Source: Candidatus Peribacteria bacterium
GTDB taxonomy: Bacteria; Patescibacteriota; Gracilibacteria; UBA1369; LOWO2-01-FULL-3
Length of the DNA stretch: 64,000 nt
Assembly: GCA_943357285.1 (NCBI GenBank)
Contig: CALRGJ010000006.1
Coordinates: 10,428-74,427, forward strand
Direction: 5' to 3'
Made by a program: the position numbers and the translations under genes. Position 1 is the stretch's first letter; the number at the start of each line of letters is the position of its first letter. The notes beneath the pieces were generated by a model. It saw only the letters and a program-made list of their open reading frames with translations. It ran no database searches and was not told the origin of the DNA. This document shows, in pieces, positions 11,015-40,817 of this stretch.

Positions 11015-11602
11015 TTACAAGATCATATCAAATACCAAATTATCTACAGATTCAGCTATATCTTTTCCTCCATAAATTACCATGTCGTAATCTCCAAAAG
11101 CATTGCTTACATAATACATAATTTGTTTTACATCTCCTCCAACATCCGCACGTACGGATCTAGCTCCACTTATATCAGTTTTTCTAGCAGATACATCTTT
11201 CTCATCATATCCAGAAGCGGCGTTTACCTGCTTTTTTAGTAAATCAGCATCAGCAACTGTTCCATCAATACCACTCATATCAGCCAATTTATCAGACGGA
11301 TTTGTCGGCTTGAAATCTCTTGTTGCCAACCATATTTTTGGTGCTTTTGAATTATCAGCTGTTCCGAAAGATAATATTTTTCCGAAACCAACCTCTGCCT
11401 TCAAGTTTGTAACCACAGGTTCTCCCCATAATTTGTCATAACAAAACTGTAATGTGGAATCAGGCAATTTATATGCTACCTCTGAATTATCACATGCTAT
11501 TACTGCAGTTGCAGGATTAAATCTAACGGGAGTTGCAGTCTTTGTCCCTCCGCAAGCAGTCAGCATTACAGCTGCCATAGTTACTACAAGTATTTTTTTC
11601 AT
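11015..11602 (-). CDS. hypothetical lipoprotein, last gene of the sigma/A2M-like operon
   Basis: Lipobox MLTACGG. It lies 61 nt downstream of the giant gene on the same strand and is followed by the terminator at 10971-11002. Confidence 0.6.
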   Translation of the reverse strand: MKKILVVTMAAVMLTACGGTKTATPVRFNPATAVIACDNSEVAYKLPDSTLQFCYDKLWGEPVVTNLKAEVGFGKILSFGTADNSKAPKIWLATRDFKPTNPSDKLADMSGIDGTVADADLLKKQVNAASGYDEKDVSARKTDISGARSVRADVGGDVKQIMYYVSNAFGDYDMVIYGGKDIAESVDNLVFDMIL

Positions 11603-11663
11603 ATAATTTTGTTTATTAGTTAGCCTACAAATTCTACATAAGTCACCACTTCCTTACAAGCCC

Positions 11664-14600: not shown

Positions 14601-17183
14601 TGTAGAGTAAGCTGGACCATTTTGATCATCAATAGTTTTTAGCGCAACAATATAATATTTATCTGAATCGATAGGGAACTGATAGCTTGCTTCTCCATTC
14701 TCATTTGTCACCCCGCTTATTGACGCAATTTTTTCTTTTTTCTGCGTGTAGTTATAGGTTTTTGCAGTCACTTTATTTATAAAATCATAATATTCACCGC
14801 TTTCTTCTTTGTCCCAACTTACTTGAATAATATTGCCGGTAAAATTTCTATTTTTAGCAACATCACCAAGATAGTCATCGTAACTTTTCTCGCTGGCATT
14901 GTTTATTCTTTTTAAATCCACCCACTTGGTTTTTACCGCTAAATTGGCAACTGTCGTGCCATCATCTTTTTTCACTGTCTCGGCTCTGCTCGCGATATTT
15001 AAGTGAGAATTAAATATTCTCACATCATTATTCGCTTGGATAGCACTTTCCTCGGATAATTTTGATTCAATATTATAATAGAAATAATTTATATCTGAGC
15101 AGTATTCTTCGTACTCATAAGTACAATCACTTTTTTTAGCTACCATGCTCGCCTTCGCTTCACCTTTAGTATTTGTAGTAAAAGTTTTTGATTTATTGGA
15201 AGAATCCAGCTGTCCATTATCCGTGATAGCTAAATTTGCAACCGGAGTCCCATCAAAAAATTCCGATTTAATATTGAAGTTTACCGTCTCTCCTACAAAC
15301 ACTGCATGTTTATCATTCTCCATCGTGAGATTATATGCAGGTTTAATATAATCTTCGACTTCAAAAGTAGTGGATGAAATCTGATCTTCACCTTGATAAA
15401 TTTGTATTGAGTAAGTAGATGGAGTGAAACTCTTTATCTCAAATTCACCCTCTATTGCCCCATCTTTATCAAATGTCAGTGGAATTTCTCTTACAAAAGT
15501 ATCCCAGTTATGCATTAGCTTCACCTTCAAATTATCAGGTTTGGCCACTCCGCTTTTTGGAGTAACGAATCCCCAGAAATGAACTTTATCCGTTGGTTTA
15601 TATTTTGAACGATCAGTAATAAGAGTCTTCCAGTAACTCATGCTCTTGTCTACCGAGAAGTAAACATAACCATCCAAAGGTGTAACTAAAGTCTTTCCAT
15701 CCGGAGCAGTTATTTTTGCGAAAGAAGCTACCATTTCACCATTTGTATCCGTAAAATCTTTCCAGGACTGAGGAGTTGTGAATTTTGCAATTCCATCACT
15801 TCCGGTTTTGATTACTTGATCAAGATCTTTGATTTGAATAGTAGCACCTTCCACCGGTTTTCCGGTTTGCAAATCATTCACCCAAATTACAGAATCAGTT
15901 ATAGAAGTCGTAATATAAGAAGATAAATCCGTTATTTGCACCAAAGTTTGAGCCTTATGGCCATTGTCATCTACCTGGAATAAGTAGTAGCCTTTATCTA
16001 AAGTTTTCTCTGGCAAGTATAGATATGAATTCCAGCGTGGGGTCTCTATAAGACCTTGCATGCTTCCCAAATCCTGCAATCCTGTAGTTGAGTGCAAATA
16101 CTTATTATTTGAATAATAAGCCCAGCGAGGAACATTTGCTGAATTCTTAAGCGCACTCAAATACTGGTTTTGATCGGTATACTTGTAGACTTGAATCGAA
16201 ACATCTTTCTTGCCCTGTTGCTCAAAACTATAAGAATAAACCTCCATTGCTATAGAACTTGTTGGAGAAATTTCATAGTAATCTTTGCTGAAATTGAAAT
16301 TTTGACCTGATGTAGATGGCCCTCCGTCTGTTTCAAATTTAAAAACAAAATCTTTTTCCAGTTTTTTGTCGGTATCTTTGATGCCAAATCCTTGCTTCAA
16401 TTTTACTGTATAAATAGTTTCAGAATTCAAAGGACTATTTGGTATGAAGCTCATAATTCTATCATGTTTTTCAAATCTTCCATCCACTTTAGGACTTATT
16501 TCAAAGAAATTTTGGACATTTTTGAAATCATAAGAAGCATGGCTGAAATTAATTTCAATTCCTGTATTTGTAGGCACGTAGCTGGATGCATTTGTTGGAA
16601 TACTTCCGTCGACTTTGAAATTATCTTGAATTTGATAAGCCCAACTTTGATCGCCATCATCAGTTTCAATATAGAAATTATATATTGTATTAGCCTCTAG
16701 TCCCTTTACCGCCTCCACTCTATATTTTCCTTTATCGGTTTTCTCAACATTGAGTTTAACTTCCGGCTGAACTTTTAGATTTTCCTTAATAATATCGACA
16801 CTGAGATCTTCGCTTGCAGTTAGAGTAAACCCACTATCGCTAGCCACTCCGCTCGCATCTTCAGTGATTGCCACCATCTCGAAATCCGCATATACAACCT
16901 GCATATTTGATCCAAACCAACCACGCAAACCACTGCTGAATACTAGAGCAACAATCAAAAGTCCTGAGATAACTGAAACTGATACTAATCTTTCCGGCAT
17001 CTTGAAAAGTGATTTGAATAAATCAACAAAAGTAGCTTTTTTATCTGTAACATCTTCCGCAATTTCGGCAGTGTGCTGTTTTTTCTTCATATCAACTTTC
17101 TTAGATATATATTTCCATAGATATTCTTTGCTCTTCTTGAGCTCTAGGTTATCCACCGACCTATTTGTGTATTTTTTATCCAT
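11664..17183 (-). CDS. membrane-anchored alpha-2-macroglobulin-like protein with embedded Hint domain (possible anti-sigma fusion)
   Basis: 1839 aa. The N-terminal ~65 aa are hydrophilic, then one TM (LVSVSVISGLLIVALVF), then long beta-rich MG-like repeats. An A2M_N_2-like segment (KPGEEVSLSVYV...NFNIVDEAYY) and the A2M signature (RQQFKDTALF...VPDNITSWRILA) follow. The TED-like region (YQRDGGLALLPY) has no CxEQ. The start lies 3 nt after the sigma-factor stop. Confidence 0.85.
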   Translation of the reverse strand: MDKKYTNRSVDNLELKKSKEYLWKYISKKVDMKKKQHTAEIAEDVTDKKATFVDLFKSLFKMPERLVSVSVISGLLIVALVFSSGLRGWFGSNMQVVYADFEMVAITEDASGVASDSGFTLTASEDLSVDIIKENLKVQPEVKLNVEKTDKGKYRVEAVKGLEANTIYNFYIETDDGDQSWAYQIQDNFKVDGSIPTNASSYVPTNTGIEINFSHASYDFKNVQNFFEISPKVDGRFEKHDRIMSFIPNSPLNSETIYTVKLKQGFGIKDTDKKLEKDFVFKFETDGGPSTSGQNFNFSKDYYEISPTSSIAMEVYSYSFEQQGKKDVSIQVYKYTDQNQYLSALKNSANVPRWAYYSNNKYLHSTTGLQDLGSMQGLIETPRWNSYLYLPEKTLDKGYYLFQVDDNGHKAQTLVQITDLSSYITTSITDSVIWVNDLQTGKPVEGATIQIKDLDQVIKTGSDGIAKFTTPQSWKDFTDTNGEMVASFAKITAPDGKTLVTPLDGYVYFSVDKSMSYWKTLITDRSKYKPTDKVHFWGFVTPKSGVAKPDNLKVKLMHNWDTFVREIPLTFDKDGAIEGEFEIKSFTPSTYSIQIYQGEDQISSTTFEVEDYIKPAYNLTMENDKHAVFVGETVNFNIKSEFFDGTPVANLAITDNGQLDSSNKSKTFTTNTKGEAKASMVAKKSDCTYEYEEYCSDINYFYYNIESKLSEESAIQANNDVRIFNSHLNIASRAETVKKDDGTTVANLAVKTKWVDLKRINNASEKSYDDYLGDVAKNRNFTGNIIQVSWDKEESGEYYDFINKVTAKTYNYTQKKEKIASISGVTNENGEASYQFPIDSDKYYIVALKTIDDQNGPAYSTSYVYGDMSDGSNDYEYYSMKVLKENLSKNSNEYWNGSNYRFDIGETVDTVISKNYTIDLPKETKGRFLFMQESNGIQKYEIKDSPYYSFKFSKDNVPNVFVDGVWFDGKTYKQANSTNIEYKREMKNLKLKIDSNKEEYKPGEEVSLSVYVTNNDGAPMPAKINFNIVDEAYYKTVYSGMSDPLEQIYYSSGSGILLSYFTHNNPLNAKSGEGGKGGCFTGETQISMADGTTKAIKDIKKGDKILTKENEFSSKLIPAEVVGKTIKNVSEYFVINENLEVTAEHVVFANGQWIKVADLKLGDSMVDKDGHLIKIASMRPVVKSVDVYNMEIKDYHTYFANGFFVHNEKGDGAYYVRQQFKDTALFYSADVGSDGRGSVKFKVPDNITSWRILATAINIDSLSAGTETKNIKVTLPFFVDMVMNREYSEKDNPMIKFRAYGKELKDGDAVTFNPDVDGVKGKAIDGKAFVGSYFNLPALPLGTHDVTVKADSRSMKDAMKKPFEVKGSRLTQDVVKTIRNIDDKTVFNLGKQGQTEIQFLDSGVAYYYYNLLSLYYNDGKRLDQIVASKAAADILKKYFGKEFAQHDEDEGNYILESYQRDGGLALLPYASNDLKLSALVVAFDVNLDRYSKHELKRYFYNVFKDPKSNLDDIVLSLLGLASMKEPVLLDIREIAKAKELSVQQKLYLGLAYAKIGSYPDARKILQEVSTKLVGDTSNTGIHNLALGADLASSINDVLTAETLWKGVNMSGFGNEDLTNLYELGYVTGAIKNAKTSPVSFKYKLNQASENVSIKTGESKSILASPGDVVAVSVSEGSLAAVLNYRDGVEPAEFKKDSRLNITRKYLVNGKETTEFNEGDLVRVEIDLGSPGSVASPFYRITDILPSGLTPAISYMPMYGSTFDTNLSYPFMINGQEISFCWFPYFKEVIHGTSRSKIVYYAKVVNPGTFYADPAKITSFYDHNVANISEPAMIKINPAK
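13563..13949 (-). other. Hint / mini-intein-like (BIL-like) domain inside the A2M-like CDS
   Basis: Residues 1079-1207 read CFTGETQISMADG...LEVTAEHVV...DYHTYFANGFFVHN. This gives Cys1, the TxxH block B and the terminal His-Asn. It is 129 aa with no endonuclease insert. The +1 residue is Glu (HN|EKGDG). Confidence 0.8.
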
Positions 17184-18341: not shown

Positions 18342-20429
18342 ATGGATAAAATAAATATGAAAAATAAAAACAAAAAACAGTATTTGGCCATCGTTTTGGC
18401 CATCGGTATAATATTCACCAGCACTCAAAATGCCGACATTGGTAAGTACATTAGACCTTCGGTTTTTGTGGATTTCAGCATTGAGCAAAGTCGCAAAATT
18501 TCTATGGTAAGCAATATAGAAGAAGACCTGCTTACAGCTAGAAATGTTCTTAGAGGTTGTGATGTTGTGGTTGTGGGAGGAGGTGCCTCCGGTACGGCAG
18601 CGGCTATACAATCTGGGAGAATGGGTGTGAAGACCTGTATTATTGAACAAACAGATTGGCTGGGGGATATGCTAACAGCTTCAGGAGTCTCAGCTATTGA
18701 TGGTGACCCCGCAAAAACCTCAGGTATTTTTCGCGAATTTTTAGATAGAGTAATTAGTTATTATAAAAAAGAAGGTAAATCCGCTCAAACTCATCTTTGT
18801 CATGTAAGTCCATTTTGTTATGAGCCTTCTGTAGGAGCCGCAATTTTGAATGAGATGGTTTCAGAAGTGCCTACTTTGAAAGTTTATTACAACTCTTATG
18901 TTACCAAAGTGTACCGTGAAGGTAATTTAATTAGAGGTGTAAAATTTAAGAATAATAAGGGTGGTGACTACGTTGTCCCTGCACATGTAGTAATTGATGC
19001 TACTCAGTTTGGTGATCTGATGTATATGGCAAATATTCCTTATGACATCGGTGTAGATGAGAATTCCACCGAGTTTCATGCGAATATTACTTCTCAATGT
19101 ATTCAGCCACTCACTTTCGTCGCAGTTTTGGAATTCAAAGGTAAAGATGTAACTATTCCCGAACCTGAAAATTATAATATCAATAATTATAAATGTACTA
19201 TTCCAAATAAGCTTTGTCCCGGATCAAGCAGTCAGTTTGATATGGAGCGTCTTTTGGAATATGGACATCTCCCAAATGATAAAATGATGATCAATGTTCC
19301 AAGCCATTCATATGGTAATGATTATGATGCCTCAAGAGAAGCTCTGGATAATTTTAGTCGCGCCGATATTTTCCAAAAGGCTAAAGATTTTTCTTTGGGA
19401 TATATCTATTTTATACAGAAGGAACTTGGTTTTAATTATTATGGATTGAGCAATGAATTTGGAACTGATGATAAACTCGCAAAACTTCCATATGTGAGAG
19501 AAAGCAGACGTCTTGTGGGACAATATCGTCTCCAAGAAGAAGATGTACTTCCTGATAGTGATGGGCGTTCTAAAATTTTCTCAGATAGCATAGCAATTGG
19601 TGATTATCCAATTGATTTACACTTCTGTGAAAGAGGAAAAGGAGATTTTTATTACCCAATTCCTCCGTATCAAATTCCATATGGAGTGACAGTGCCTAAG
19701 GAAATTGATGGATTTCTTGTTGCTGGTCAAAATATCTCAGTGAGTCACATCGTAAATGGTACTACAAGAATGCAGCCCGTAGTAATGCAGTTGGGACAAG
19801 CTGTCGGAATGGCCTCTGCTCTTTCCGTAATTAATGATGTTCAGCCTCGCAATGTTCCAATTTTAGAACTACAAGAAAAATTAATTAATGCGGGATCAAA
19901 GGTTCTATATTTTAGCGATGTGAATACTGACAGTTTTTCTTATCCATACGTTACCAAACTTGCTTTGAAAAACATTCTTCGCGGTTACAACGATTTTTCT
20001 TTCAAGCCAAATGTTGCAATCAATAATTATGATATGACCATGATGTTCGCTAAGGCTTCAGCTCTTACCGAATATCAACAATTTAACGAGAATACAACTT
20101 TTGAATATGAAGACGCCCTAGCCTTATTAAAAGAAAAAAACATTTTTGATAAATCGTTAGATTTATCAAAAGTAGAAAAACCTGTTACCAGAGAGGAATT
20201 GGCGCATGTAATTTCTAGATTTGTAGATCCAACCGGTAAACACACAGCTTCTAGCAAAAACTTTAGCGACGTTACTAAAAAGAGTCGATTTCAAGCTGAT
20301 ATATCAAAGCTCGCCAGCCTGGACATAGTAAGTTCTAAACATGATAAATTCAGACCAGGAGATGTGGCAACTCGTGCTGAAGCGGTGACCATGCTTGGCA
20401 AAGCCATGGAGTATTCATCATCACTTTAG
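18342..20429 (+). CDS. exported FAD-dependent oxidoreductase with C-terminal SLH repeats
   Basis: Signal peptide. Dinucleotide-binding motif VVVVGGGASGTAAAIQSGRMG. C-terminal SLH-like repeats (FSDVNTDSFSYPYVTKLALKNILRGY..F.P; FSDVTKKSRFQADISKLASLDIV...FRPGDVATRAEAVTMLGKAM). Confidence 0.8.
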   Translation: MDKINMKNKNKKQYLAIVLAIGIIFTSTQNADIGKYIRPSVFVDFSIEQSRKISMVSNIEEDLLTARNVLRGCDVVVVGGGASGTAAAIQSGRMGVKTCIIEQTDWLGDMLTASGVSAIDGDPAKTSGIFREFLDRVISYYKKEGKSAQTHLCHVSPFCYEPSVGAAILNEMVSEVPTLKVYYNSYVTKVYREGNLIRGVKFKNNKGGDYVVPAHVVIDATQFGDLMYMANIPYDIGVDENSTEFHANITSQCIQPLTFVAVLEFKGKDVTIPEPENYNINNYKCTIPNKLCPGSSSQFDMERLLEYGHLPNDKMMINVPSHSYGNDYDASREALDNFSRADIFQKAKDFSLGYIYFIQKELGFNYYGLSNEFGTDDKLAKLPYVRESRRLVGQYRLQEEDVLPDSDGRSKIFSDSIAIGDYPIDLHFCERGKGDFYYPIPPYQIPYGVTVPKEIDGFLVAGQNISVSHIVNGTTRMQPVVMQLGQAVGMASALSVINDVQPRNVPILELQEKLINAGSKVLYFSDVNTDSFSYPYVTKLALKNILRGYNDFSFKPNVAINNYDMTMMFAKASALTEYQQFNENTTFEYEDALALLKEKNIFDKSLDLSKVEKPVTREELAHVISRFVDPTGKHTASSKNFSDVTKKSRFQADISKLASLDIVSSKHDKFRPGDVATRAEAVTMLGKAMEYSSSL

Positions 20430-31399: not shown

Positions 31400-32392
31400 A
31401 TGAAAATCCCTGAACATCCCTTTAGTTGGAAAGCGCTAATTCGTATTTTAACTATGGGAGTTTTAGTAATGCTAGCCTCAAAGGCTAGTGGTGCTTTTGT
31501 TATTATTCTAATTGCTATAGTGATGGCAGTATCACTTCATCCTATGGCAAAGTTATTAACCAAAAAAACTGGAATGCCATTTCTGGCTTCAATATTTATT
31601 GTGCTCACTATTATTTTGGTTCCATTTGTTTTCTTAGGTTTTAGTTTTATTCCTTCTATCATTGAGCAGTTTCCAGATTTGGTAAAAGTGATTAGTTCTA
31701 TCATTTCAAATTTAACCTTCCTTCCTCCTTCATTAGCCAATTTCAACCTTAGTCAGTTTTTAGAGGCCAACTACGGCTCACTTTTGGCATCCACTCAAAC
31801 TATCGCCATGTTCTTTTTTAATCTTCTTACAGTGGTGATTATGACAATTTATTTTATTTATGAATATGATCAGCTAATAGAGTTATTGCTGAATCGTTTT
31901 CCTACTCACAAAAAAACTAAATTAAAGGCACTACTACAGGAAATAGCAGAGGTAATGGGTAAGTATATTAGAGGACATCTTCTTATTTCTTTTATCTGTG
32001 GTCTGGTGAATTACATTGGTTTTACACTTATTGGAATTCCATTTGCATTACCATTGGCTATTCTCTGTGGAATTTTAGATTTGCTCCCTATTGTCGGACA
32101 AAGTATTGGAGCCATACCAGTATTAATTATTGGTTTTAGTATTTCTCCTATGAAAGGAGTTTTAGTCCTTATCCTAAATATCGCTTATCAACAACTTGAG
32201 AATGCTTTTATTGCGCCACTCATATACAAAAAAGTTCTAAAACTTTACCCATCTATAATTATGGTTTCGGTAATTATTGGTGGAAGTTTATTCGGAATAT
32301 TGGGAGCATTCTTAGCTCTTCCTGTTGCCGCAGTAATTCCGGTCGTGATCAAATATAACAATGATTATGAAAAGGATATGGCCAGAAAATAG
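31400..32392 (+). CDS. AI-2E family transporter (PerM/UPF0118-like permease)
   Basis: About 8 TM helices. The central loop (KYIRGHLLISFICGLVNYIGFTLIGIPFALPLAILCGILDLLPIVGQSIG) is typical of the family. Confidence 0.8.
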   Translation: MKIPEHPFSWKALIRILTMGVLVMLASKASGAFVIILIAIVMAVSLHPMAKLLTKKTGMPFLASIFIVLTIILVPFVFLGFSFIPSIIEQFPDLVKVISSIISNLTFLPPSLANFNLSQFLEANYGSLLASTQTIAMFFFNLLTVVIMTIYFIYEYDQLIELLLNRFPTHKKTKLKALLQEIAEVMGKYIRGHLLISFICGLVNYIGFTLIGIPFALPLAILCGILDLLPIVGQSIGAIPVLIIGFSISPMKGVLVLILNIAYQQLENAFIAPLIYKKVLKLYPSIIMVSVIIGGSLFGILGAFLALPVAAVIPVVIKYNNDYEKDMARK

Positions 32393-32394: not shown

Positions 32395-33687
32395 TTATTT
32401 TTTTCTGATCAAAATATAATAAACTCCTGATCCCATCAATAAAATTAAAATAAAAATCTTTAAAACCAAGATGTTGTTTTTTTCCTCAGTGATGATTCTA
32501 TCATCCTCAACAATCTTACTCTCATCATTTCCCATAACTTTAAATACGGCATCGGCATAAACTTCTTCTCCCATTACTTCGCTAGTAACTCGAATTCTAT
32601 ATATTCCAGCTTTAGTACCTGGTTGTAGATCAATTGGAAGTCTCACTATTGTTCCTTCTTTTGGATCGGCATTGGCAAACCCTTCACCATATAAGGCACC
32701 ATCAATGTTGAAAATTTTATATTCAATTTTGATTGGATATTTCACATTTTCATCATATCGGTAGAAATTTATATCCAGATTGAATGGCTTTTGATTTGGA
32801 ACAGGTTGGTAGCCTGGAGTGAGAGACAAAGATAGTGGATTTTCTTTTGTAATCTTTTTATCCTGATGCCTTACGATGAAAGGAATTTTTTTGGTAGAAA
32901 TTAATTCATCTGTTCCTTGTGTTTTTATAATTACATTGAACACATGCTCTCCAACCTCAATAGGTTTTGGAGGAGACCAAAACCAATCTCCATTTTGATC
33001 TGCAAAAATTACATCTTTTTGAACACGACTAAACATGGTTATTTCCAGTTTTGCAAATGGAACCGTTTTTCCGGTAAAAATAATTGGTTTATTTGCATAT
33101 AGATTGATTTCCTCATTTTCCGATACCTTGTCAATATTGAGGGATACTATATTCTTCAAAACTGTATCCGAATATCCATCATCTGTTACTTCAGTTCTTA
33201 CAATTTTAGGTAAAAAAGGATCAAGATAGTGTTCCACTATATCGGGCTCAACATATGGTTCGAGAGTTTTATCATCAAATAAATACTTCTTGTCATTATC
33301 AATGACAATTTTTGTAGTTTCTTTAACTGGAGCTACTACGACAATTTTAACCAAATCTTCCTTTATCACTGGTACAACAGGCAAAATCTCGGTATTGGTC
33401 AATTCAGTATCCGGTGTCTCAATATTATCTGTGGCTTTATCAGGTGTAGGAGTCTTCTTAACAGTTGGTTTACTATAAGTTGCTGGAAAGGATCCTCCAC
33501 CGCCATTTGAGTTTGTCACCTCGGGCTCATCCTCGATTGCTACAATAGTAGGGGGGACCGTGGCTGAAAGATTAACAACTTCTGCTAAAAAGCTGTCACC
33601 CCTTATAGCACCATCATTCACTACTAAATATATTGACCCGTAAAGAGTCATAGCCGCGATTAGCAATATTGGAAGTTTTTTTTGCAT
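32395..33687 (-). CDS. secreted beta-rich protein with Pro/Thr linker and C-terminal TM anchor
   Basis: N-terminal signal/anchor, a GGGGS and PT-rich linker, Ig-like beta segments, and a C-terminal LVLKIFILILLMGSGVYYILIRKK. It is divergent from the surface cluster across a 136-bp shared region. Confidence 0.6.
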   Translation of the reverse strand: MQKKLPILLIAAMTLYGSIYLVVNDGAIRGDSFLAEVVNLSATVPPTIVAIEDEPEVTNSNGGGGSFPATYSKPTVKKTPTPDKATDNIETPDTELTNTEILPVVPVIKEDLVKIVVVAPVKETTKIVIDNDKKYLFDDKTLEPYVEPDIVEHYLDPFLPKIVRTEVTDDGYSDTVLKNIVSLNIDKVSENEEINLYANKPIIFTGKTVPFAKLEITMFSRVQKDVIFADQNGDWFWSPPKPIEVGEHVFNVIIKTQGTDELISTKKIPFIVRHQDKKITKENPLSLSLTPGYQPVPNQKPFNLDINFYRYDENVKYPIKIEYKIFNIDGALYGEGFANADPKEGTIVRLPIDLQPGTKAGIYRIRVTSEVMGEEVYADAVFKVMGNDESKIVEDDRIITEEKNNILVLKIFILILLMGSGVYYILIRKK

Positions 33688-33823
33688 GTCTCAACTATCT
33701 CAAATAATTAGATGGCACACAAGTTTATGCGAATAAACACCGTTTTGGCACTCATATTTGCAATTTTAGTGAATTTATGATAAAATTACATGATAAAACA
33801 AAAAAAATAACATAAATACCACA

Positions 33824-34873
33824 ATGAATACCTTGAGAAAATTAGTTTCAAAAATCACCATTCTTGGACTGGTAATGACCTTGATGACTCCTAATATTTC
33901 TCGGGCTGCAAGTTTAACCAGCGCTCAAGACCAGCTTTCAACTAACAAAGCCTCGATAGCGGCAAATCATACTATTTATTTTGTTACACCTACAGGAATT
34001 ATGGGTGGGCAAACTATGGAAATAACCATGACTAACTTTGCCGTTCCGGCAGCAATGAGTTTTGCAGATATGGATTTAGCGGAGGGATCTACCGGTACTT
34101 GCTCCACAGCCTCATATTCCGAGCAAACTCTTGCCGCTTCAGCCAGTGGTACTACATGGGGAGCAGTATCTAGTGATGTAACAGATACATTTATGTTTAC
34201 TGCTGGATCCTCAGGGATTACAGCCGGTAGATGTGTAAGAATTAAAATTGGTACTAATGCAACAGGTGGTACTTACCAGATCGTTAATGGTGCAGTGGGA
34301 AGCCAAAATATTCTCATAGGCGGAGGTTCCAGCACTATGGCTGATTCTACTTATATTGCAGTAGCAATGGTTACTGATCCGCAAGTAGATCTATCTGCTT
34401 ATGTTGGTTCAAGTTTGACCATGACTCTAAGCTCGACTAGCGTCAGTATTGGAGCCTTATCATCTAGCTCAACAAACGAGACAGGAAGCACCATTGTAAC
34501 AATCAATTCAAATTCGAATAGTGGGTACTTCCTTAAGTATAATGCTTCAAATCTGACAAACCAATCTGCCTATAGTCTTGCAGCACTGTCATCCAAAACA
34601 GCTGCAGCTCCTGGTACTGAGCAATGGGGTCTTAATGCTGCTTCAGTCAATAACGCGGCTTCAGGATCAGATTCACTAGGTAGCGCGGATTCCAATTATG
34701 GTACAGCCAGCTCCTATATGGTAGTTCCAAGCGTAGATACCTTACTTGCCTCTGCAAGTGGCACGGCCCAGAGTCATGCATATACGGTGACATATGGTGT
34801 GGATATTAGCGCTCTTACTCCTTCTGGTAGTTATACCGGTACAGTAGATTATCTTGTTTATGGAGCGTTCTAA
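33824..34873 (+). CDS. secreted Ser/Thr/Ala-rich surface subunit with WxL-like C-terminal module
   Basis: Signal peptide (..NISRAAS). The C-terminal ~155 aa (SSLTMTLSSTSVSIGAL...NSGYFLKY...GTEQWGLNA...YTGTVDYLVYGAF-stop) are shared with the 958-aa protein. Confidence 0.7.
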   Translation: MNTLRKLVSKITILGLVMTLMTPNISRAASLTSAQDQLSTNKASIAANHTIYFVTPTGIMGGQTMEITMTNFAVPAAMSFADMDLAEGSTGTCSTASYSEQTLAASASGTTWGAVSSDVTDTFMFTAGSSGITAGRCVRIKIGTNATGGTYQIVNGAVGSQNILIGGGSSTMADSTYIAVAMVTDPQVDLSAYVGSSLTMTLSSTSVSIGALSSSSTNETGSTIVTINSNSNSGYFLKYNASNLTNQSAYSLAALSSKTAAAPGTEQWGLNAASVNNAASGSDSLGSADSNYGTASSYMVVPSVDTLLASASGTAQSHAYTVTYGVDISALTPSGSYTGTVDYLVYGAF

Positions 34874-35022
34874 AAAGTGTTAATTAAGACAATAATTGTC
34901 CAATTAAGAATCGCGGTTTTCCTCATCAGTAAGCCAAAATTTTAAGTTTTTGTTGTATTGATTTTTGATATCAAAAAGGATAGTCTGAGGTAGACGAAAT
35001 ATTTAGACGTAAACCCTCATTC

Positions 35023-36039
35023 ATGTCTTCCTTTTTTAAAAAGCTTTTGCTAACGTTGAGTGCTTTTTCTATTTCTGTATGTTTTTTGAATACCGCTTTT
35101 GCCGATGGAGTAAATATTGGAGTGAGTCCACTTATTATTGAGCTCAAAGCAAATCCAGGAGAAACAGTCTCAGAAAAAGTAAAAATCAATGTAGGGAAAG
35201 ATAGTAAGGGAACGTCATTAGCAACAAGGGTAAGAGATTTTTATTATGATGAAAATGATGAACTCCAATTTTTGACTCCTGAAGAAGAGGAAGATCCGGA
35301 TTTGAAGCAATTTGCTCTTAAGAGTTGGTTGAGTGTAGATCAGGAGATTACTTTTGATAGTAAAGGTGAAAGAGATGTTTCAGTCACAATCAAAGTTCCG
35401 AAAGATGCTTCACCGGGAGGAAGATATGGAATGGTCCTCTTTTCAAAAAGCTCAGGACCTTCACAAGGTGGGGGGTCTAACGTTGGGGTGGGAGGACAGG
35501 TGGGTGTGATGATTTTGGTAACGGTGAATGGTGAATATTCTAGTGGGGGAAGTATTTCTGAAGAATTAAAATCAGGTAGTCTTTCTAAGGATGGCAAAAC
35601 TTTTGATTCTCACAAAATATTTAGCGGTGGATCTCTATTCAAAAACGGTCCAATTGATTTCAAATTTCGCTTTTTAAATAATTCGGCTACTCATGTTGTG
35701 CCTAAGGGATCTATTACTGTTAAAAATATTTTTGGAGGATTGGTAGGAAAATTTGATATACAAGGGAAGAGGGTATTTCCTGGAGTTTCCAGATCACTTT
35801 ACGGTACTTTAGATAAAAACTTTCTCTTTGGAATATATAAGGCCGATTTGGAATTAACTGACGGAGATGGAAATGTTCATAATTCAGGAACATTTTTTAT
35901 TGGGTTTCCACTGAAACTAGTTGTGCTAATTTTATTATTCTTTGGCGCAATTTTCATGTTCTTTAAATATTACAATAAGTGGCTGATTAATAAGGCTTTA
36001 AAACAATATGGGAAAAGTTCTAAAAATAAAAAGATATAG
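35023..36039 (+). CDS. cell-surface protein, DUF916/DUF3324 (CscA)-like architecture with C-terminal TM anchor
   Basis: Signal peptide (AFA|DG). Beta-sandwich-like segments carry PGET...KVKIN and VPKDASPGGRYGMVLFS motifs. The C-terminal TM (LKLVVLILLFFGAIFMFF) is followed by a Lys-rich tail. Confidence 0.6.
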   Translation: MSSFFKKLLLTLSAFSISVCFLNTAFADGVNIGVSPLIIELKANPGETVSEKVKINVGKDSKGTSLATRVRDFYYDENDELQFLTPEEEEDPDLKQFALKSWLSVDQEITFDSKGERDVSVTIKVPKDASPGGRYGMVLFSKSSGPSQGGGSNVGVGGQVGVMILVTVNGEYSSGGSISEELKSGSLSKDGKTFDSHKIFSGGSLFKNGPIDFKFRFLNNSATHVVPKGSITVKNIFGGLVGKFDIQGKRVFPGVSRSLYGTLDKNFLFGIYKADLELTDGDGNVHNSGTFFIGFPLKLVVLILLFFGAIFMFFKYYNKWLINKALKQYGKSSKNKKI

Positions 36040-37060
36040 ATTAACACAACTTATCTTCGTCTTATTTTTGATAAGTTTTTCTCCTAGTCTCATCGCCTCT
36101 GCTGAGGAAACTGCTCAACCAGTCGAATCAACGCCGGTAGAAACGGCGCCAATAATAGTCCCAGTGGTGGAAGAATCTCCCGTGGTTGAAGAAACTCCAG
36201 TGCTTGTTGAGCCCGTTCCAGTTACAGAACCTATCGTAGAAGTCACGCCTGTTAGCGAGCCTGCTCCGATTGTCGATGCTACAGTGGTGACACCTCCCGC
36301 AGATACACCTCCATCCGAAGATATCACTATAGAAGAAGACAAAGATCTTTTGGATAAAACTTTTTCTGATCCAGTCGTGGAGACAGAAGTAGAGCAACCT
36401 GAGTCTTTCGGACAGCAAGATCCAGATAAGATATTCAGTGAGGAGAAAATAGATGTTGGTGAAGTTGTTGATTTGAGTAAAAAAAAGGATGAACTCAATA
36501 AATTTGATGATGTCTTCTCCACTGTTAATATTGAACAGGAAATTAAAATAGAAAAGAAAAAAGTAGAGGCTTTGCATTCTTGTGCTTTTGACGATTTTTC
36601 AATTGAGATTGGAAGCAATGAAAAAAAATCCACACCAATTCTATTGAAAAAAAGCGGACCTAATAAAAAATTTGGTTTAAAGGTTGGAAGCGTTCCAGAG
36701 GGAATAGAAATAACATTTAGTACAAATAATAGGGATTTTACATCTGGTGAAAGTGGATCGCCGAGTTTAGCTCAAAAATTTTCTGTGCTAGAAACTAAAG
36801 CTGTTAACAAAGAATTGATTTTTACTGAATCTGTTTTAGAGGAAAAAGATCAACAATTTAAAGCTAAAAAGGAAATTAAAATAGATGAGAGGGAAGTTGT
36901 TCCGGAGGAAATTATGATAACAAGCTCGTCCAATTTACAAAAAGGTTCATTCAATATTCCGATTATTTATGCTGAGAGTAATTATGAAATAGGAGAGGAA
37001 AATTTCGATTCAAATTCAACAATAGAAACCAATTGCCAATTTAATCTTATCGTAAAATAA
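36008..37060 (+). CDS. secreted protein with PVE-rich spacer region
   Basis: Signal peptide (LIASA|EE), then ~90 aa of P/V/E/T repeats (PVESTPVETAPIIVPVVEESPVVEETPVLVEPVPVTEP...). It overlaps the upstream gene by 32 nt and the downstream ATG by 1 nt (TAATG). Confidence 0.6.
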   Translation: MGKVLKIKRYRLTQLIFVLFLISFSPSLIASAEETAQPVESTPVETAPIIVPVVEESPVVEETPVLVEPVPVTEPIVEVTPVSEPAPIVDATVVTPPADTPPSEDITIEEDKDLLDKTFSDPVVETEVEQPESFGQQDPDKIFSEEKIDVGEVVDLSKKKDELNKFDDVFSTVNIEQEIKIEKKKVEALHSCAFDDFSIEIGSNEKKSTPILLKKSGPNKKFGLKVGSVPEGIEITFSTNNRDFTSGESGSPSLAQKFSVLETKAVNKELIFTESVLEEKDQQFKAKKEIKIDEREVVPEEIMITSSSNLQKGSFNIPIIYAESNYEIGEENFDSNSTIETNCQFNLIVK

Positions 37061-39936
37061 TGAAAAGAAATTTTACAATTGGAGCATTAATTTTGGGAGC
37101 ATTTAGCTTTTTACTCTTAGCGACTGCCTACGCTAGCAGCGGAGGGCCAGATACTTTTGGGTATACGTACAATACCAGTGCGGGAGTCTCAGCTATTAGT
37201 CACACTGGCGCAGCAACAACCATTGGAGCTAGAGGGGATGATACTTTGTATGGATCTTTCAATATAGGTTTTACTTTTAATTTTTACGGTACTGACTACA
37301 CTACATTCTATGTTTGTAATAATGGTTTCGTTACATTTGTAGGTGGAAATTGTGGTTATAATGAAACTGATATGCCTATAGGAGCAGCACCGAATAATTT
37401 TATTGCTGCTTTCTGGGATGATCTTTATACAAGTGGTACTATTAAATATGAGCTTTTTGGTAGCGCTCCAAATCGTTATATGGTTGTAAGTTTCGAAGGT
37501 ATTAATCATATAAGCTATCAAGCTTCTAGTGCTAATTTTCAGGTGATTCTCTATGAGGGATCTAATAACATTAGACTGCAATATACTGATTCGACGATGG
37601 GAAATGCTTCCGTGGATTATGGTCTTTCCGCAACAGTTGGTATTGAGAATTCGACTGGAAGCTATGCCTTGAAATTTTCATATCGTACATCCAGTCTATC
37701 TGATGGTTTAGCCATTGATTTTGCTGCACCGACACCTACTCTAACTATTGTACAATCTGCCTATAGATTATTTGGTAATTCCAATAGTACAGATGTAAGC
37801 ACTGCCTTGGCTTCTGCTGATACCAGCGCTACGCTGGGAGCAACAAATGCTAAATTTAGATTACGCATGTTGCTACATATTGCCGGGACTTCACTTACTC
37901 AAAATGCGGGATCATTGAAACTGCAATATGTTGGAAAGGGTAGCGGTACTTGTGCAGCACCATCATCCGGCACTCCCTCTGCTTGGACTGACGTAACTAC
38001 TTCAACCGATATTGCTTTTTACAATAATTCCACACCAACTGATGGAGATGCGCTCACCTCAAATGGATCAGATCCAACTCATAGTACTGATACAATTGTG
38101 AATCAAACTTATGAGGAGTCCAATAATTTTTCCAATTCCCAATCTTTAATTGGTGTCGGCCAGGATGGTAAGTGGGATTTTTCACTCTATGATTTTGCCG
38201 GATCTTCAAATATAACTTACTGTTTCCGCATCGTAAACTCAGGAGGAACACTCTTGGATGCCTACAATGTATATCCAGAGCTAACAACTAAGACTGCTGC
38301 AGCAACGTCCGGAGGTCCGGACACTTATGGTTATAGATGGAATAATAGTAATGGAACCGGTGAAGCGTATAGTTGGTATGACATTTCAGCAACTGGTACG
38401 GAAATCACCGGCAGAAGTGATGATAGTATGAGCGGCGTACTGAATGTTGGTTTTACTTTTAATTTTTACGGTAATGATAAAACTATTTTCTATCTCTGTA
38501 ATAATGGATTTATTTCTTTTTCAGGGGCTAACTGTGCGTACATAAATGCAACTATTCCTACCGCCGGCACACCTAATGATTTTATTGCTCCATTTTGGGA
38601 TGATCAATTTACGGCAGGTCATGTCTATTATCAAACTATTGGTTCTGCTCCATCTCGTCAATTAGTGGTTTCTTTTGACGGAATTGATCCCTACAGCAAC
38701 AGAGGCACTGCGGCACTTTCTTATCAAATTATTCTCAATGAAAGTACCAATGTTATAAAGCTACAATACAAAGATGTTGATTCTGGCATAGCAGGATATG
38801 GCGGAGGAGTAGCTGCGACTATTGGTATTGAAAATTCTACAGGAACCGATGGTCTTTTATACTCATTTGATCAAGCCAGCCTAACTGAGAATTATGCTAT
38901 TACGTTTAGTAGTTCCTTACCATATGCTCAATCAGCTTATAGATTTTTCTCCAACAACAATAGTTCCAGTGTTTGGAGCGCTTTTGCAGCCCAAGATACA
39001 CCATATACACTAACGTCCGACGGCGAAGAGTTCAGAATAAGAATGTTGATACACAACGCCGGCTCTTCTTTATCCATAAGTGGAGGAAGTTTTAAGTTGC
39101 AATTTGCGGATAAGGGAGTGGGGACGTGTTCATCTCCTACTGGATCCTGGACGGATATAACAACTTCTACTTCGTTGGCTTATAAAGATAATCCTACACC
39201 AGTTGATGGCGATGCCTTAAACAGCTACTTCAATGATCCTACTCATGGAGGAGATACCATAAATAATCAAACATACGAGGAGGCTAATAATTTCACTAAT
39301 TCCCAGTCTGCAATTGCCAGCGGAGAAGATGGAAAATGGGATTTTTCACTCTATGATAAAAGCGTCAGTGGAGTAAGTACCTTTTGTATAAGAGCCGTGA
39401 CCAGTACGGATGGAACATTCTCAACCTATACTTCTTATCCTCAGATAACCACAGCGCCGGGGGCAAGCTCTTTAACTTTTAGTCTTACAAACTCAACCAT
39501 TGATCTTGGCATGCTGACTTCGACAGCTACTACATCAGCCACTGCAACAACAATATCTGTCACTACAAATGCCACAAACGGATTTCAAGTTTATCTAAGT
39601 GGAGAAGGAAATGGAGCAACTGCGGGATTATATAATTCCGGTAGCGCTTCACTCATTTCCGCTTCTGCTTCCTCCAATGTAGTTTCGAGTGGTACAGCCG
39701 GTTTTGGGATATATGTTGAAAACGCATCTGTTGGAATTACAATTGATGAAGGTTTCGATAATGACGGAGTAACAGATTCAGCCTTCTCCAGATCATCACA
39801 GAAAATTTTTTCCACAACTTCATCAACAGGTGAAGCTCAAACAGCCGACCTTAAATATAAGACAGTGATTGATGCCAGTGTACCGGCGGGAATGTATTCT
39901 GAAATAGTTAGCGTGATTGTGTTTGGATCATTTTGA
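37060..39936 (+). CDS. large secreted adhesin-like protein: two ~390-aa tandem units plus WxL-like C-terminal module
   Basis: Signal peptide. Two copies of SGGPDT[FY]GY...GFTFNFYG...NNGF[VI][TS]F...FWDD (NIDO-like), each followed by QSAYR.F.N.NS...FR[LI]RML[LI]H.AG...GKWDFSLYD...C[FI]R.V. The C-terminus ends ...AGMYSEIVSVIVFGSF-stop. Confidence 0.75.
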   Translation: MKRNFTIGALILGAFSFLLLATAYASSGGPDTFGYTYNTSAGVSAISHTGAATTIGARGDDTLYGSFNIGFTFNFYGTDYTTFYVCNNGFVTFVGGNCGYNETDMPIGAAPNNFIAAFWDDLYTSGTIKYELFGSAPNRYMVVSFEGINHISYQASSANFQVILYEGSNNIRLQYTDSTMGNASVDYGLSATVGIENSTGSYALKFSYRTSSLSDGLAIDFAAPTPTLTIVQSAYRLFGNSNSTDVSTALASADTSATLGATNAKFRLRMLLHIAGTSLTQNAGSLKLQYVGKGSGTCAAPSSGTPSAWTDVTTSTDIAFYNNSTPTDGDALTSNGSDPTHSTDTIVNQTYEESNNFSNSQSLIGVGQDGKWDFSLYDFAGSSNITYCFRIVNSGGTLLDAYNVYPELTTKTAAATSGGPDTYGYRWNNSNGTGEAYSWYDISATGTEITGRSDDSMSGVLNVGFTFNFYGNDKTIFYLCNNGFISFSGANCAYINATIPTAGTPNDFIAPFWDDQFTAGHVYYQTIGSAPSRQLVVSFDGIDPYSNRGTAALSYQIILNESTNVIKLQYKDVDSGIAGYGGGVAATIGIENSTGTDGLLYSFDQASLTENYAITFSSSLPYAQSAYRFFSNNNSSSVWSAFAAQDTPYTLTSDGEEFRIRMLIHNAGSSLSISGGSFKLQFADKGVGTCSSPTGSWTDITTSTSLAYKDNPTPVDGDALNSYFNDPTHGGDTINNQTYEEANNFTNSQSAIASGEDGKWDFSLYDKSVSGVSTFCIRAVTSTDGTFSTYTSYPQITTAPGASSLTFSLTNSTIDLGMLTSTATTSATATTISVTTNATNGFQVYLSGEGNGATAGLYNSGSASLISASASSNVVSSGTAGFGIYVENASVGITIDEGFDNDGVTDSAFSRSSQKIFSTTSSTGEAQTADLKYKTVIDASVPAGMYSEIVSVIVFGSF
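37138..39456 (+). repeat. internal tandem duplication (about 2 x 1.16 kb) within the 958-aa CDS
   Basis: Unit 1 is 37138-38304 (aa 27-415). Unit 2 is 38305-39456 (from aa 416). They are colinear at protein level with many identical blocks. Confidence 0.8.
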
Positions 39937-40353
39937 GGCTACAGCATTTTCTATCGGTGCTAAAACTTTCTGAATTTCTTCCAGAGTTTTAGAATTGTTT
40001 TTTTCACTTTCTGCTTTTTCTAAACTAGCTTTGACCTCACCAATTTTCTGAGTAGCTTCTTGAAGTTGTTTATTTGCATCTATATTTTTTGATGCTAACA
40101 AATCTTGGAACGCTTTGTCCGCAGAGTTATCATTTACTTTCTTTTGTAATTCGGCAACTTTTTGTTCTGCTTTTTGCAAATTATCTTTCAGTTCGGTCTG
40201 TTTATCAGTCAGCGTTTCATTTTTTGTCTCTACTTTTTTGTCAGCATATTCAGCTCCACTCTTTGGTTCCGGCTTTTCACCTGAAAAGTAAACCAAACGG
40301 CATGGCTGGAAAGAATAATTTGATTCGAATGATGTGAATTTTTGAGTTTTCAT
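39928..40353 (-). CDS. hypothetical coiled-coil protein
   Basis: 141 aa, Lys/Glu/Gln-rich heptad-like sequence. The 3' end overlaps the convergent adhesin gene by 9 nt. Confidence 0.5.
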   Translation of the reverse strand: MKTQKFTSFESNYSFQPCRLVYFSGEKPEPKSGAEYADKKVETKNETLTDKQTELKDNLQKAEQKVAELQKKVNDNSADKAFQDLLASKNIDANKQLQEATQKIGEVKASLEKAESEKNNSKTLEEIQKVLAPIENAVASK

Positions 40354-40356: not shown

Positions 40357-40743
40357 TTAAATTTTATCTAATTGTTCTAAAAGTTGACCTAGTACTTTCT
40401 CATCATTAGTTTGGCTTTTCACCTCTGCGTAATTACTTACCGCTAGGGAATACTGACGTTCTATATTATTTAATCTAGCCATTAAATCATTTATTGCCGC
40501 TATCTGAGAATCAACCTCAACCATTTTTGATTTTTCTGCTGCTGCCAAATCGGATTGTTCTTTTTCAAAAATTGCTATCAAAGCTTGTTGTTTTTCTCCC
40601 TGGGCTGCTGCCAATTTTTCAATTAATTGAGTCTGAACAGATTCATTTAGTGAAATAATAGCTGGTGATCCCATTGCTAAGGAGCGTAAGCGGTCATCCT
40701 GAATTTTGAAGAAATCAACCATAATTTGTTTTTCTATTCCCAT
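40357..40743 (-). CDS. hypothetical coiled-coil protein
   Basis: I prefer the ATG at 40743 (MGIEKQIMVDFF...); the track uses a TTG at 40779. It lies 3 nt upstream of the next coiled-coil ORF. Confidence 0.5.
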   Translation of the reverse strand: MGIEKQIMVDFFKIQDDRLRSLAMGSPAIISLNESVQTQLIEKLAAAQGEKQQALIAIFEKEQSDLAAAEKSKMVEVDSQIAAINDLMARLNNIERQYSLAVSNYAEVKSQTNDEKVLGQLLEQLDKI

Positions 40744-40817
40744 AATTATACCATAAAACGGGCATTTATTAAACCACAAAAGAGTTAAAAACTACCGCTA
40801 ATCTGTATAATTGCCAC

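Follow-up and report, generated by a model that had tools for sequence, protein, structure and literature searches.

A probable five-gene Pam-type pilus cluster of a Patescibacteria-like bacterium, with a chaperone homologous to WxLIP

We analysed a stretch of 64,000 nucleotides (hereafter the window) from contig CALRGJ010000006.1 of assembly GCA_943357285.1; its sequence is identical to that of contig CALRFJ010000005.1 in the metagenome-assembled genome (MAG) GCA_943356505.1. Our results indicate that region 32395-39936 of the window is probably a compact five-gene cluster encoding a Pam-type pilus of a bacterium resembling the candidate phyla radiation (CPR)/Patescibacteria. As such, the cluster is a minimal variant of the Pam system, in which a single pilin (P1) and a single chaperone (P2) are combined with a tip candidate bearing NIDO-like heads (P4), a member of a further family (P3) and a candidate modular anchor (P5). 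An earlier reading made from the sequence alone (the sequence-only reading) had described P1 to P4, at 33824-39936, as four co-directional genes with signal peptides. The four open reading frames (ORFs) are exactly as it gave them, and the fifth gene of the functional unit, encoding P5, is divergent and lies beyond the coordinates of that reading. The features are listed below, with the evidence for each in brackets.

32395..33687, minus strand: P5, 430 aa, candidate PamR-like pilus terminator/anchor (position, architecture, donor motif, hhalign)
33556..33576, minus strand: copy of the donor-strand motif in P5, residues 38-44, VNLSATV (motif scan, co-variation with the pilin)
33688..33823: stretch separating the divergent P5 and P1 genes; it contains, at 33758-33786 on the plus strand, a promoter-like site (TTGCAA-17-TAAAAT, TG-extended) (consensus scan and sequence)
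33824..34873, plus strand: P1, 349 aa, Pam-type major (shaft) pilin by profile match (NF058581, AF2, family alignment)
34373..34414, plus strand: linker of P1, residues 184-197, TDPQVDLSAYVGSS, candidate donor strand (conservation, monomer model)
35023..36039, plus strand: P2, 338 aa, candidate membrane-anchored assembly chaperone, PamC/D-type and WxLIP homologue (AF2, Foldseek, PF06030, hhalign)
36008..37060, plus strand: P3, 350 aa, secreted accessory protein (inspection, alignment, HMMER, synteny)
37060..39936, plus strand: P4, 958 aa, candidate tip adhesin (NIDO matches, C-terminal domain profiles, head homologues)
39478..39933, plus strand: predicted acceptor domain of P4 (Pam C-terminal domain), residues 807-958, ending ...VIVFGSF-COOH (NF058581, P1-family profile)

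The Pam system was described in a preprint of June 2026 by Troman et al. (bioRxiv 10.64898/2026.03.03.709456), who solved two filaments of Ca. Mycosynbacter amalyticus, a CPR member of the Saccharimonadia, by electron cryo-microscopy. In these filaments, the C-terminal domain (CTD) of a pilin accepts the linker strand of the next subunit by donor-strand exchange, the linker of PamA and PamB being the donated strand. The operon also encodes the pilin PamE; PamT, which consists of a CTD only and is the proposed tip; PamC and PamD, which are PapD/FimC-like chaperones with a C-terminal transmembrane (TM) helix; and PamR, a proposed terminator/anchor in which an N-terminal strand is followed by two fibronectin type III (FnIII)-like domains and a C-terminal TM segment. 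PamA/PamB homologues assemble into long filaments and rank with the most abundant proteins of M. amalyticus (bioRxiv 10.64898/2026.03.03.709456).

The shared C-terminal domain and the shaft pilin

The sequence-only reading had noticed that P1 and P4 end in the same module, which it put at about 155 aa and which we find to span about 150 aa. In a BLASTP comparison the two proteins share 25% identity over 177 aa (E=0.01), a marginal match that is colinear and C-terminal in both. NCBIfam model NF058581 (CPR_Pam_pilin_C) matches residues 204-349 of P1 at 76.9 bits (curated cutoff 55) and the C-terminal 150 aa of P4 at 33.6 bits (E=3.6e-8), in the latter case over profile positions 2-148 of 148. 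A hidden Markov model (HMM) built from P1-family sequences alone detects residues 807-958 of P4 at 56.8 bits and the orthologues of P4 at about 49 bits, and it picks up the C-terminal ends of large proteins encoded nearby in distant loci, one of these proteins being 2,540 aa long. Because independent profiles match both proteins, the relationship between the P1 and P4 modules is real despite the weak BLASTP result. The module forms the end of the polypeptide in all 73 examples, with Phe or Tyr as the final residue in 65 of them. Judged by these profile matches, the module common to P1 and P4 is the C-terminal domain of CPR Pam pilins.

P1 consists of a signal peptide (residues 1-28), an N-terminal beta-sandwich domain (NTD, about 30-183), a linker (184-197) and the CTD (198-349). 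In a model predicted by AlphaFold2 (AF2) from a 28-sequence alignment (mean predicted local distance difference test score, pLDDT, 86.5), residues 32-183 and 198-347 form strands and residues 184-197 an unpaired coil. This layout is that of a two-domain pilin, with an N-terminal beta-sandwich, a single linker and an open C-terminal immunoglobulin (Ig)-like domain, as described for PamA and PamB. The linker carries the alternating residues V188/L190/A192/V194, among which V188, A192 and V194 are invariant or nearly so in the 28 sequences; the alternating hydrophobic pattern is the one expected of a donated strand, for which the linker is a candidate. An alternating motif of the same class is present at about residues 186-205 of every pilin in more than 20 loci. 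P1 also reaches 63.6 bits against the PamT model NF058579, below its cutoff of 240 and via the shared CTD only, and sequence searches of the PDB with P1 and with the P1-family profile returned nothing useful for this protein. On the strength of its profile match and layout, we assign P1 as a Pam-type shaft pilin. Since NCBI's own model would name P1, the core of the system is already known. The sequence-only reading had stated that pilin-type genes are missing and that clusters of this kind are uncharacterised; the first statement fails on P1 itself, and the second no longer holds now that the Pam family has been characterised, at least in Saccharimonadia.

By inspection, P1 to P4 begin with signal-peptide-like segments of n-h-c organisation that end in AxA-type sites (ISRA↓AS, AFA↓DG, ASA↓EE and AYA↓SS, in that order). 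The two gene junctions reported before could both be read directly: the ATG of P3 at 36008 falls within P2, whose TAG stop occupies 36037-36039, giving a 32-nt overlap (36008-36039), and the stop of P3 overlaps the start of P4 in TAATG at 37058-37062. Orthologous loci retain the same P2/P3 and P3/P4 couplings. Two other loci, L004 and L009, possess the five-gene set of the window within different flanking genes. In L036 and L037 the four core genes occur in a permuted order (P3-like, P4-like, pilin, chaperone), the pilin-chaperone and P3-P4 pairs are each kept together, and the P4-like proteins are 44-49% identical to P4.

The modest size of the cluster bears on how long the structure is. It might form only a short stalk, with P4 mounted on one or a few P1 units tied to P5 as a membrane-anchored complex spanning the wall or S-layer. 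The window holds a single Pam-type cluster with one pilin gene and one chaperone gene, against three and two in M. amalyticus, and donor-strand logic is compatible with any copy number. Moreover, our promoter/terminator consensus scan detected no internal terminator, including in the 149-nt spacer between P1 and P2, so there is no obvious signal boosting P1 expression. Against a short stalk, P1 is the first gene 3' of the promoter-like site (promoter-like sites in the scan were no more numerous than in shuffled sequences), nothing in the sequence caps the addition of P1 subunits, and the PamA/PamB homologues form long and highly abundant filaments in M. amalyticus. We therefore regard a short stalk as quite unlikely, and a polymeric Pam-type pilus remains the preferred reading.

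The membrane-anchored chaperone and the WxL/csc clusters

P2 carries a signal peptide (residues 1-27, by inspection). Its AF2 model (pLDDT 81.3, from an alignment with 14 homologues) consists of two Ig-like beta-sandwich domains (about residues 30-170 and 176-296) and a C-terminal TM helix (297-329), after which the protein ends in the Lys-rich tail KSSKNKKI. Domain 1 contains a disordered Gly-rich, F1-G1-like loop (145-157) between two long strands, and the PGGRYG motif is nearly invariant across the P2 family. The beta-sandwich, the PGGRYG-type motif and the C-terminal membrane segment with its Lys tail, all noted previously, are thus borne out by the model and the family alignment.

In a Foldseek search of the PDB, the first-ranking match of the P2 model was 9i1y_A ("WxLIP from Enterococcus faecium", E=3.8e-11), as the sequence-only reading would have it, and the fourth was 9i25_C ("WxLIP bound to long WxL"). 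These were followed by RbmA and by CfaA, Caf1M and FimC, which are chaperones of chaperone-usher systems, with TM-scores of 0.48-0.58 (normalised to the target) for the last three. Sequence comparisons gave the same picture. First, the best match of the P2-family profile in the whole PDB was EfmWxLIP1 (E=0.002). Second, Pfam PF06030 (WxLIP_PGBD, formerly DUF916) scored P2 at 25.0 bits, near its gathering score of 27.3 and under it, and matched 8 of 14 close and 13 of 36 broad members of the P2 family (best E=3.7e-11); PF11797 (DUF3324) did not match P2. Third, genuine WxL clusters were retrieved from Lactobacillales and Listeria plasmids and compared by hhalign; the P2 family aligned with the Firmicute WxLIP at 98.0% (E=1.7e-13, 241 columns), while the 36 chaperones from all Pam-type loci did so at 98.4% (E=1e-14, 232 columns), in each case over both domains. 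None of the 36 chaperones matched a PapD model of Pfam at E<=0.01. In addition, as an indirect link to PamC/PamD, the P2 HMM matches chaperone genes at 139-188 bits in loci labelled Saccharibacteria, and the pilin of one of these loci (L011, the only one scanned) passes NF058581.

Because of these profile and fold matches, together with architecture and context, we place P2 in both groups: by sequence profile and predicted fold it is clearly a true homologue of WxLIP (DUF916/DUF3324 plus a TM segment), and by analogy of architecture and genomic context it is a PamC/D-type chaperone. That WxLIP is an orthologue of the Pam chaperone is well supported. In the WxLIP paper (PMC10599100), AF2 inserted a hairpin strand of DUF916 into the WxL domain, and by analogy this insertion would be the same act as that of a chaperone in donor-strand complementation. 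The Pam preprint (bioRxiv 10.64898/2026.03.03.709456) does not mention WxL, DUF916 or DUF3324, and we found no link between Pam and WxLIP in the searchable literature. The homology is the first evolutionary link of the Pam system outside the CPR, and it suggests that the surface clusters of WxL/csc type in lactobacilli, enterococci and Listeria, whose mode of action has been debated since 2006, work by strand complementation in the manner of a chaperone. As a separate observation, some clusters contain three paralogous chaperone genes (L010, 5952-11337; L011, L012, L014 and L020), and L010 includes versions of 496 and 428 aa that are extended at the C-terminus, which suggests that the paralogues are subunit-specific, as proposed for PamC and PamD.

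WxL/csc clusters (Siezen et al. 2006, PMC1534035; Hassan & Williamson, PMC9772566; Hassan et al. 2023, PMC10599100; PDB 9i1y, 9i25) are defined by Hassan et al. 2023 as at least one WxLIP and at least two WxL proteins within 4 genes. The window cluster resembles them in several respects. It has a TM-anchored two-Ig protein, P2, homologous to WxLIP; this protein is flanked by a small (P1) and a large (P4) secreted protein with a common C-terminal module (compare L031 and L029); and the module proteins are not covalently anchored. There are also differences. According to the cited literature, the small WxL proteins lack the pilin NTD and linker strand, and no filament has been reported; an LPXTG protein (CscD) is often added in WxL/csc clusters and is absent here; and the hosts belong to Bacillota rather than to the CPR.

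The sequence-only reading had likened the shared module, which it called divergent, to the WxL domain. No member of the P1 family (0 of 28) matched PF13731 (WxL) at E<=10, and the P1-family profile did not match any WxL chain in the PDB. When the Pam CTD was aligned by hhalign with small, large and mixed WxL alignments, the values ranged from 1.6% (28-sequence CTD) to 4% (73-sequence CTD), which is background, as unrelated domains gave 0.1-3.2% and small against large WxL gave 96.9%. A greedy profile alignment of the Pam CTD with WxL revealed three colinear motifs. The first is an "FG" strand; WxL motif 1, D.RG..GW.L.V, lies opposite Pam TN.A..GY.VTV, and WxL motif 2, Y..TI.W.L, lies opposite Pam Y..TLTY.AT, with W replaced by Y. 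The C-terminal strands are also closely alike in P1 of the window (SGSYTGTVDYLVYGAF), a small protein of L. plantarum (AGTYSGTIDYNIST) and its large partner (SGSFSGVVDWTLSNGL). Since none of the Pfam, hhalign or greedy results was significant, we rejected WxL membership of the module and kept the colinear motifs as a lead; as the domain test fails, the cluster is not a WxL cluster by definition. The idea of a distant csc/WxL analogue therefore stands in part: P2 is homologous to WxLIP and the cluster logic is alike, while the module, which matches the Pam pilin CTD family NF058581, is not a detectable WxL domain. A match of the module to another well-defined family was one of the outcomes that the sequence-only reading had itself named as refuting it. 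The profile checks proposed with that idea divided in the same way, with PF06030 near threshold for P2 and matched by its relatives, and PF13731 and PF11797 unmatched.

These results also bear on the possibility that the proteins form a non-filamentous complex of WxL/csc type, in which P2 in the membrane would hold P1 and P4 on the wall via the module without polymerisation. The homology of P2 to WxLIP over both domains, the order small WxL - WxLIP - large protein in the Listeria cluster and the same layout in that of L. plantarum, the colinearity of the three WxL hallmark motifs with the Pam CTD motifs and the very similar C-terminal strands all speak for it. However, the founding members of the module's family were solved as helical filaments, neither PF13731 nor hhalign connects the module with WxL, and a terminator-like P5 with the strand motif of the pilin is sensible only for a polymer. 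We thus consider such a complex improbable compared with a non-covalently assembled fibre, which had been proposed before and is also the best reading of our data.

Pam pili of the CPR and WxL/csc systems of Bacillota may nevertheless be two branches of one ancient monoderm superfamily built on a membrane-anchored chaperone and a strand-complemented subunit, the WxL domain being a highly diverged Pam-type CTD. We put this forward tentatively, as a possibility that we would sooner doubt than assert. If it is true, the two Trp-x-Leu motifs correspond to the GY.VTV and TLTY strands of Pam, WxL proteins are kept in place by donor-strand complementation, which might also oligomerise them, and not simply by binding to peptidoglycan, and the window cluster is the form nearest to the common ancestor.

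The tip, accessory and anchor proteins and the proposed assembly

After its signal peptide, P4 comprises two successive pairs of a NIDO-like domain and an unnamed B domain of about 180 aa (25-225/226-415 and 416-620/621-797). Whole P3, P4 and P5 had no match in Pfam or NCBIfam, and the NIDO matches of P4 appeared only after it was cut into sub-domains: residues 25-225 and 416-620 scored 23.8 and 24.6 bits against PF06119 (gathering score 25). A homologue that is 47% identical to P4 (P0053) passes PF06119 at 33.7 bits, and many of 198 homologues of the P4 head region carry this domain. Among the 120 head homologues listed, a Pam CTD closes 23 of the proteins, and a pilin NTD is absent from all of them. 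In the position of the donor strand, P4 has YPQITTAPGA and its orthologues YPQITTAAPA or YPEITTAAGA; accordingly, matches to a linker-plus-CTD HMM begin at position 8-15 for the large proteins (8 for P4) and at position 1 for pilins. P4 does not match the PamT model NF058579 (cutoff 240). Proteins composed of a head and a CTD, 247-2547 aa long, recur beside pilin and chaperone genes.

FimH and PapG are two-domain tip adhesins without a donor strand. Because P4 likewise has a CTD groove and lacks the donor strand, we place it at the tip by analogy with FimH, PapG and PamT; it would accept a strand without being able to donate one, and it is therefore a candidate tip adhesin.

P3 has a canonical signal peptide (ASA↓EE), the PVE-rich spacer reported previously and a conserved C-terminal domain with two Cys residues (about 176-350). 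The spacers of its orthologues differ in length and composition, being rich in PT or PEPAPEPT instead of PVE. The family is rare: an exhaustive HMMER search found 28 proteins at E<=1e-3 among 1.84 billion representatives, and these relatives have no Pfam domain over the matched part. In all five loci, and in both gene orders, the P3 gene lies directly 5' of a P4-type gene. Since the P3-P4 pair stays adjacent and coupled even in the permuted loci, P3 belongs to the system and is tied to the adhesin, which it probably serves. The possibilities that P3 is a divergent form of a pilin, of a chaperone, of an anchor or of a WxL protein were all rejected (hhalign <3% for each).

P5 consists of an N-terminal hydrophobic segment, a motif resembling the P1 linker, GGGG, a Pro/Thr spacer, two conserved beta-rich domains, a C-terminal TM segment and an RKK tail, with TM-like segments at residues 5-23 and 404-427. 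The sequence after the hydrophobic segment is AEVVNLSATVPPTIVAI, compared with DPQVDLSAYVGSSLTMTL in the P1 linker. We scanned the six-frame ORFs of all fetched CPR loci (171,652 residues) for this motif. Its strict form, V[DN][LI]SA.V, occurred four times, once each in the P1 and P5 proteins of both the window and L004, and in L009 the P1 and P5 motifs change jointly, to V[DS]VT. A loose form occurred 39 times, nearly always in pilin linkers or in the N-termini of anchor-type proteins. Its second site was at residues 34-57 of proteins of about 300 aa encoded directly after the chaperone gene (L006, L007, L013, L017, L018, L021 and L022). In six of these, the motif stands at the N-terminus left by cleavage of a signal peptide and is followed by a poly-Gly/Pro stretch, two Ig-like domains (Big_6/Big_13) and a C-terminal type I dockerin, whereas the L006 protein has a TM segment instead; the dockerin was above the Pfam threshold in 6 of 8 dockerin-bearing proteins scanned. 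The gene divergently upstream of the L036 cluster encodes an N-terminal TM segment, LLADVVVTIDAIVP and an SLH domain. In addition, a P5 domain aligned with an Ig-like domain of dockerin-type anchors from other clusters at 80% in hhalign, and in L004 and L009, where the flanking genes are unlike, P5 is again found in this divergent position.

These proteins suggest a modular class of terminators/anchors, made of a donor strand, a spacer, Ig-like domains and then a TM segment, an SLH domain or a dockerin, with P5 as the TM version. The class corresponds in architecture to PamR, so P5 is a candidate terminator/anchor by analogy; the class is not described in the Pam preprint, and it suggests a way in which a pilus could be attached to a cell lacking an outer membrane. 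Two minor observations concern this group. Residues 345-430 of P5 (32398-32655, minus strand) aligned with the DUF3324 end plus TM segment of the Firmicute WxLIP at 86% (hhalign, E=5e-6) and with the CPR chaperone alignment at only 1.1%; the former match may be driven by the TM helix. Anchor-like proteins with a type I dockerin were seen in L005 (9041-13396), L007 (11252-12109), L013, L017, L018, L021, L022 and L037, and in L005 there is a weak cohesin match two genes downstream, which suggests that in some lineages of the CPR the base of the pilus is tethered by a cohesin-dockerin pair.

From these features an assembly pathway can be proposed. All five proteins would be exported by Sec, and P2 would remain in the cytoplasmic membrane through its C-terminal helix. 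The beta-hairpin of P2 domain 1 would fill the open groove in the incomplete Ig-like CTD of P1 or P4, in the manner of PapD/FimC and WxLIP. Assembly would begin with P4, which, having the CTD groove without a donor strand, would be confined to the distal tip, where its two NIDO-like heads could be presented for host or surface binding. P1 subunits would then be added serially, the linker of each incoming subunit (PQVDLSAYV) displacing the chaperone strand from the CTD of the subunit before it, and this donor-strand exchange would yield a thin, linear, non-covalent filament. Growth would stop once the last P1 received the strand copy carried at the N-terminus of P5 (VVNLSATV), and the C-terminal TM helix of P5 would hold the filament to the cell. 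P3 would be made in step with P4 and might assist or decorate it.

The cluster shares several features with the Pam operon: a chaperone with two Ig-like domains and a C-terminal TM helix; one subunit with a CTD and, judged by its motifs, no donor strand (P4, likened to PamT); a protein whose layout resembles that of PamR, from a putative N-terminal strand through predicted Ig/FnIII-like domains to a C-terminal TM segment (P5); the lack of an usher, a sortase and an ATPase; and restriction to the CPR. P2 and P5 are likened to PamC/D and PamR (WP_260763277.1, WP_260763284.1, WP_260763282.1) by architecture. The two also differ. Here there are one pilin and one chaperone instead of the three and two of M. 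amalyticus, the tip candidate has 958 aa and two NIDO-like heads where PamT is a CTD-only protein of 241 aa, the adhesin is coupled to a further family, P3, and the anchor gene is divergent.

Comparison with the chaperone-usher pili of Gram-negative bacteria (Pap, Fim, CFA/I, Caf1) revealed a second set of likenesses, namely the two-domain Ig-like chaperone, at the level of fold (CfaA, Caf1M, FimC), the donor-strand logic with alternating hydrophobic residues, and a subunit C-terminus that is the end of the polypeptide and carries an aromatic residue. In contrast to those pili, there is neither an outer membrane nor an usher (no gene for an usher-sized beta-barrel is found in the cluster), the chaperone is membrane-anchored, and the predicted donor strand is an internal linker between domains and not an N-terminal extension. 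Termination also appears to differ: PapH, the terminator of the Pap pilus, is a subunit unable to accept a further donor strand, whereas the terminator proposed here would itself donate the final strand and be anchored by a TM segment, an SLH domain or a dockerin.

Several points weigh against a Pam-type pilus with these roles. First, the score of the P4 CTD against NF058581 is below the curated cutoff, and no chaperone or PamR model of NCBIfam matches P2 or the related chaperones. Second, a fold search with the full-length P1 model returned only generic tandem-Ig adhesins of MSCRAMM type (TM-score about 0.2), with no Pam entry or WxL chain among the best 50 matches. Third, the ATP-synthase neighbourhood reported for pam operons is not seen, the immediate neighbours here including no ATP synthase, CorB or MFS genes. 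Fourth, P3 is a component without an assigned role, P5 lacks a clear signal-peptidase site, so that its donor-like strand might stay by an uncleaved N-terminal anchor, and the co-variation of the P5 and pilin motifs covers only 3-5 loci. More generally, gene structure, family memberships, predicted folds, motifs, synteny and co-occurrence are observed, and the steps of strand exchange, the subunit order and the functions proposed for P3, P4 and P5 would follow from motifs and analogy.

The Pam preprint leaves open the way in which the filament attaches to its host, what occupies its tip and where the system came from. Large proteins that combine a head with a Pam CTD, with NIDO-like heads in the window, are natural candidates for tip adhesins. 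As the smallest complete set seen here, the five-gene version is a good candidate for reconstitution.

Distribution and neighbouring genes

To survey the distribution, a narrow pilin alignment was searched against one genome per species, which retrieved 16 loci. Thirteen of these carry CPR labels (Saccharibacteria, Paceibacterota, Falkowbacteria, Nomurabacteria and Patescibacteria group), one comes from a MAG labelled Pseudomonadales, and two have non-specific labels; apart from the last three, the sample is thus restricted to CPR/Patescibacteria. A P2-type chaperone gene is present in the cluster, beside the pilin genes, in 13 of the 16 loci, in keeping with the conserved co-occurrence in related genomes anticipated by the sequence-only reading, and there are often two or three pilins and one to three chaperones. 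The window pilin is about 38% identical to its nearest named CPR homologues, the named homologues of the cluster proteins come from Nomurabacteria, Kerfeldbacteria and Kaiserbacteria, and no close orthologue of the window cluster was found among the species representatives (best 37% identity). The Pseudomonadales case (L013, CAZBKJ010000023.1, "uncultured Pseudomonadales bacterium") is a typical Pam-type cluster with two pilins and a chaperone, and its label is likely a result of mis-binning or mislabelling.

Several results speak against the view that the genes are an unrelated secreted or S-layer set, or parts of a sortase, TasA or type IV pilus system, with a chance beta-rich C-terminus. 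The proteins are indeed all beta-rich, Ser/Thr-rich and secreted, and SLH proteins occur elsewhere in the window. However, regular-expression searches found no LPXTG motif in the five proteins, no sortase motif (TLxTC) in those ORFs of the window that reach 90 aa or more, and nowhere in the window a type IV pilin motif, in agreement with what had been stated before, and P1-P5 have no Pfam match to TasA/camelysin (Peptidase_M73), S-layer or SLH families at E<=1. Synteny and translational coupling are kept over five loci, and there are specific profile matches to Pam pilin C and WxLIP. This explanation is effectively refuted.

Other features of the loci were noted in passing. In L008, a 1,633-aa protein with Peptidase_S74, the intramolecular chaperone of tail fibres (11464-16365), closes a cluster that contains a P2-type chaperone; it echoes the "tail fibre-like protein" that is central in the neighbourhood network of the Pam preprint (bioRxiv 10.64898/2026.03.03.709456). 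A gene for an AI-2E family transporter lies directly upstream of the window cluster (31400-32392, plus strand) and another directly upstream of the WxL cluster of Listeria innocua (L031, 3635-4804), which is probably a coincidence. Two small Glu/Lys/Gln-rich ORFs on the minus strand, 39928-40353 (141 aa) and 40357-40779 (140 aa), converge on the cluster, the former overlapping the 3' end of P4 by 9 nt; they have no Pfam match and no counterpart in L004 or L009.

Elsewhere in the window, two genes encode SLH proteins, one with Peptidase_M23 and SLH domains (7677-9935, minus strand) and one with FAD-oxidoreductase and SLH domains (18342-20429, plus strand), implying wall attachment of the SLH/secondary-cell-wall-polymer type in this organism. 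The gene of the former is located where the window has its sole GC-rich stretch (GC content 0.52, 8-10 kb), which contains no rRNA. Finally, an alpha-2-macroglobulin-like protein of 1,839 aa (Big_5, MG2, A2M_BRD and A2M) is encoded at 11664-17183 on the minus strand, with a HINT/pretoxin-HINT/intein-like module inserted at about residues 1075-1207.

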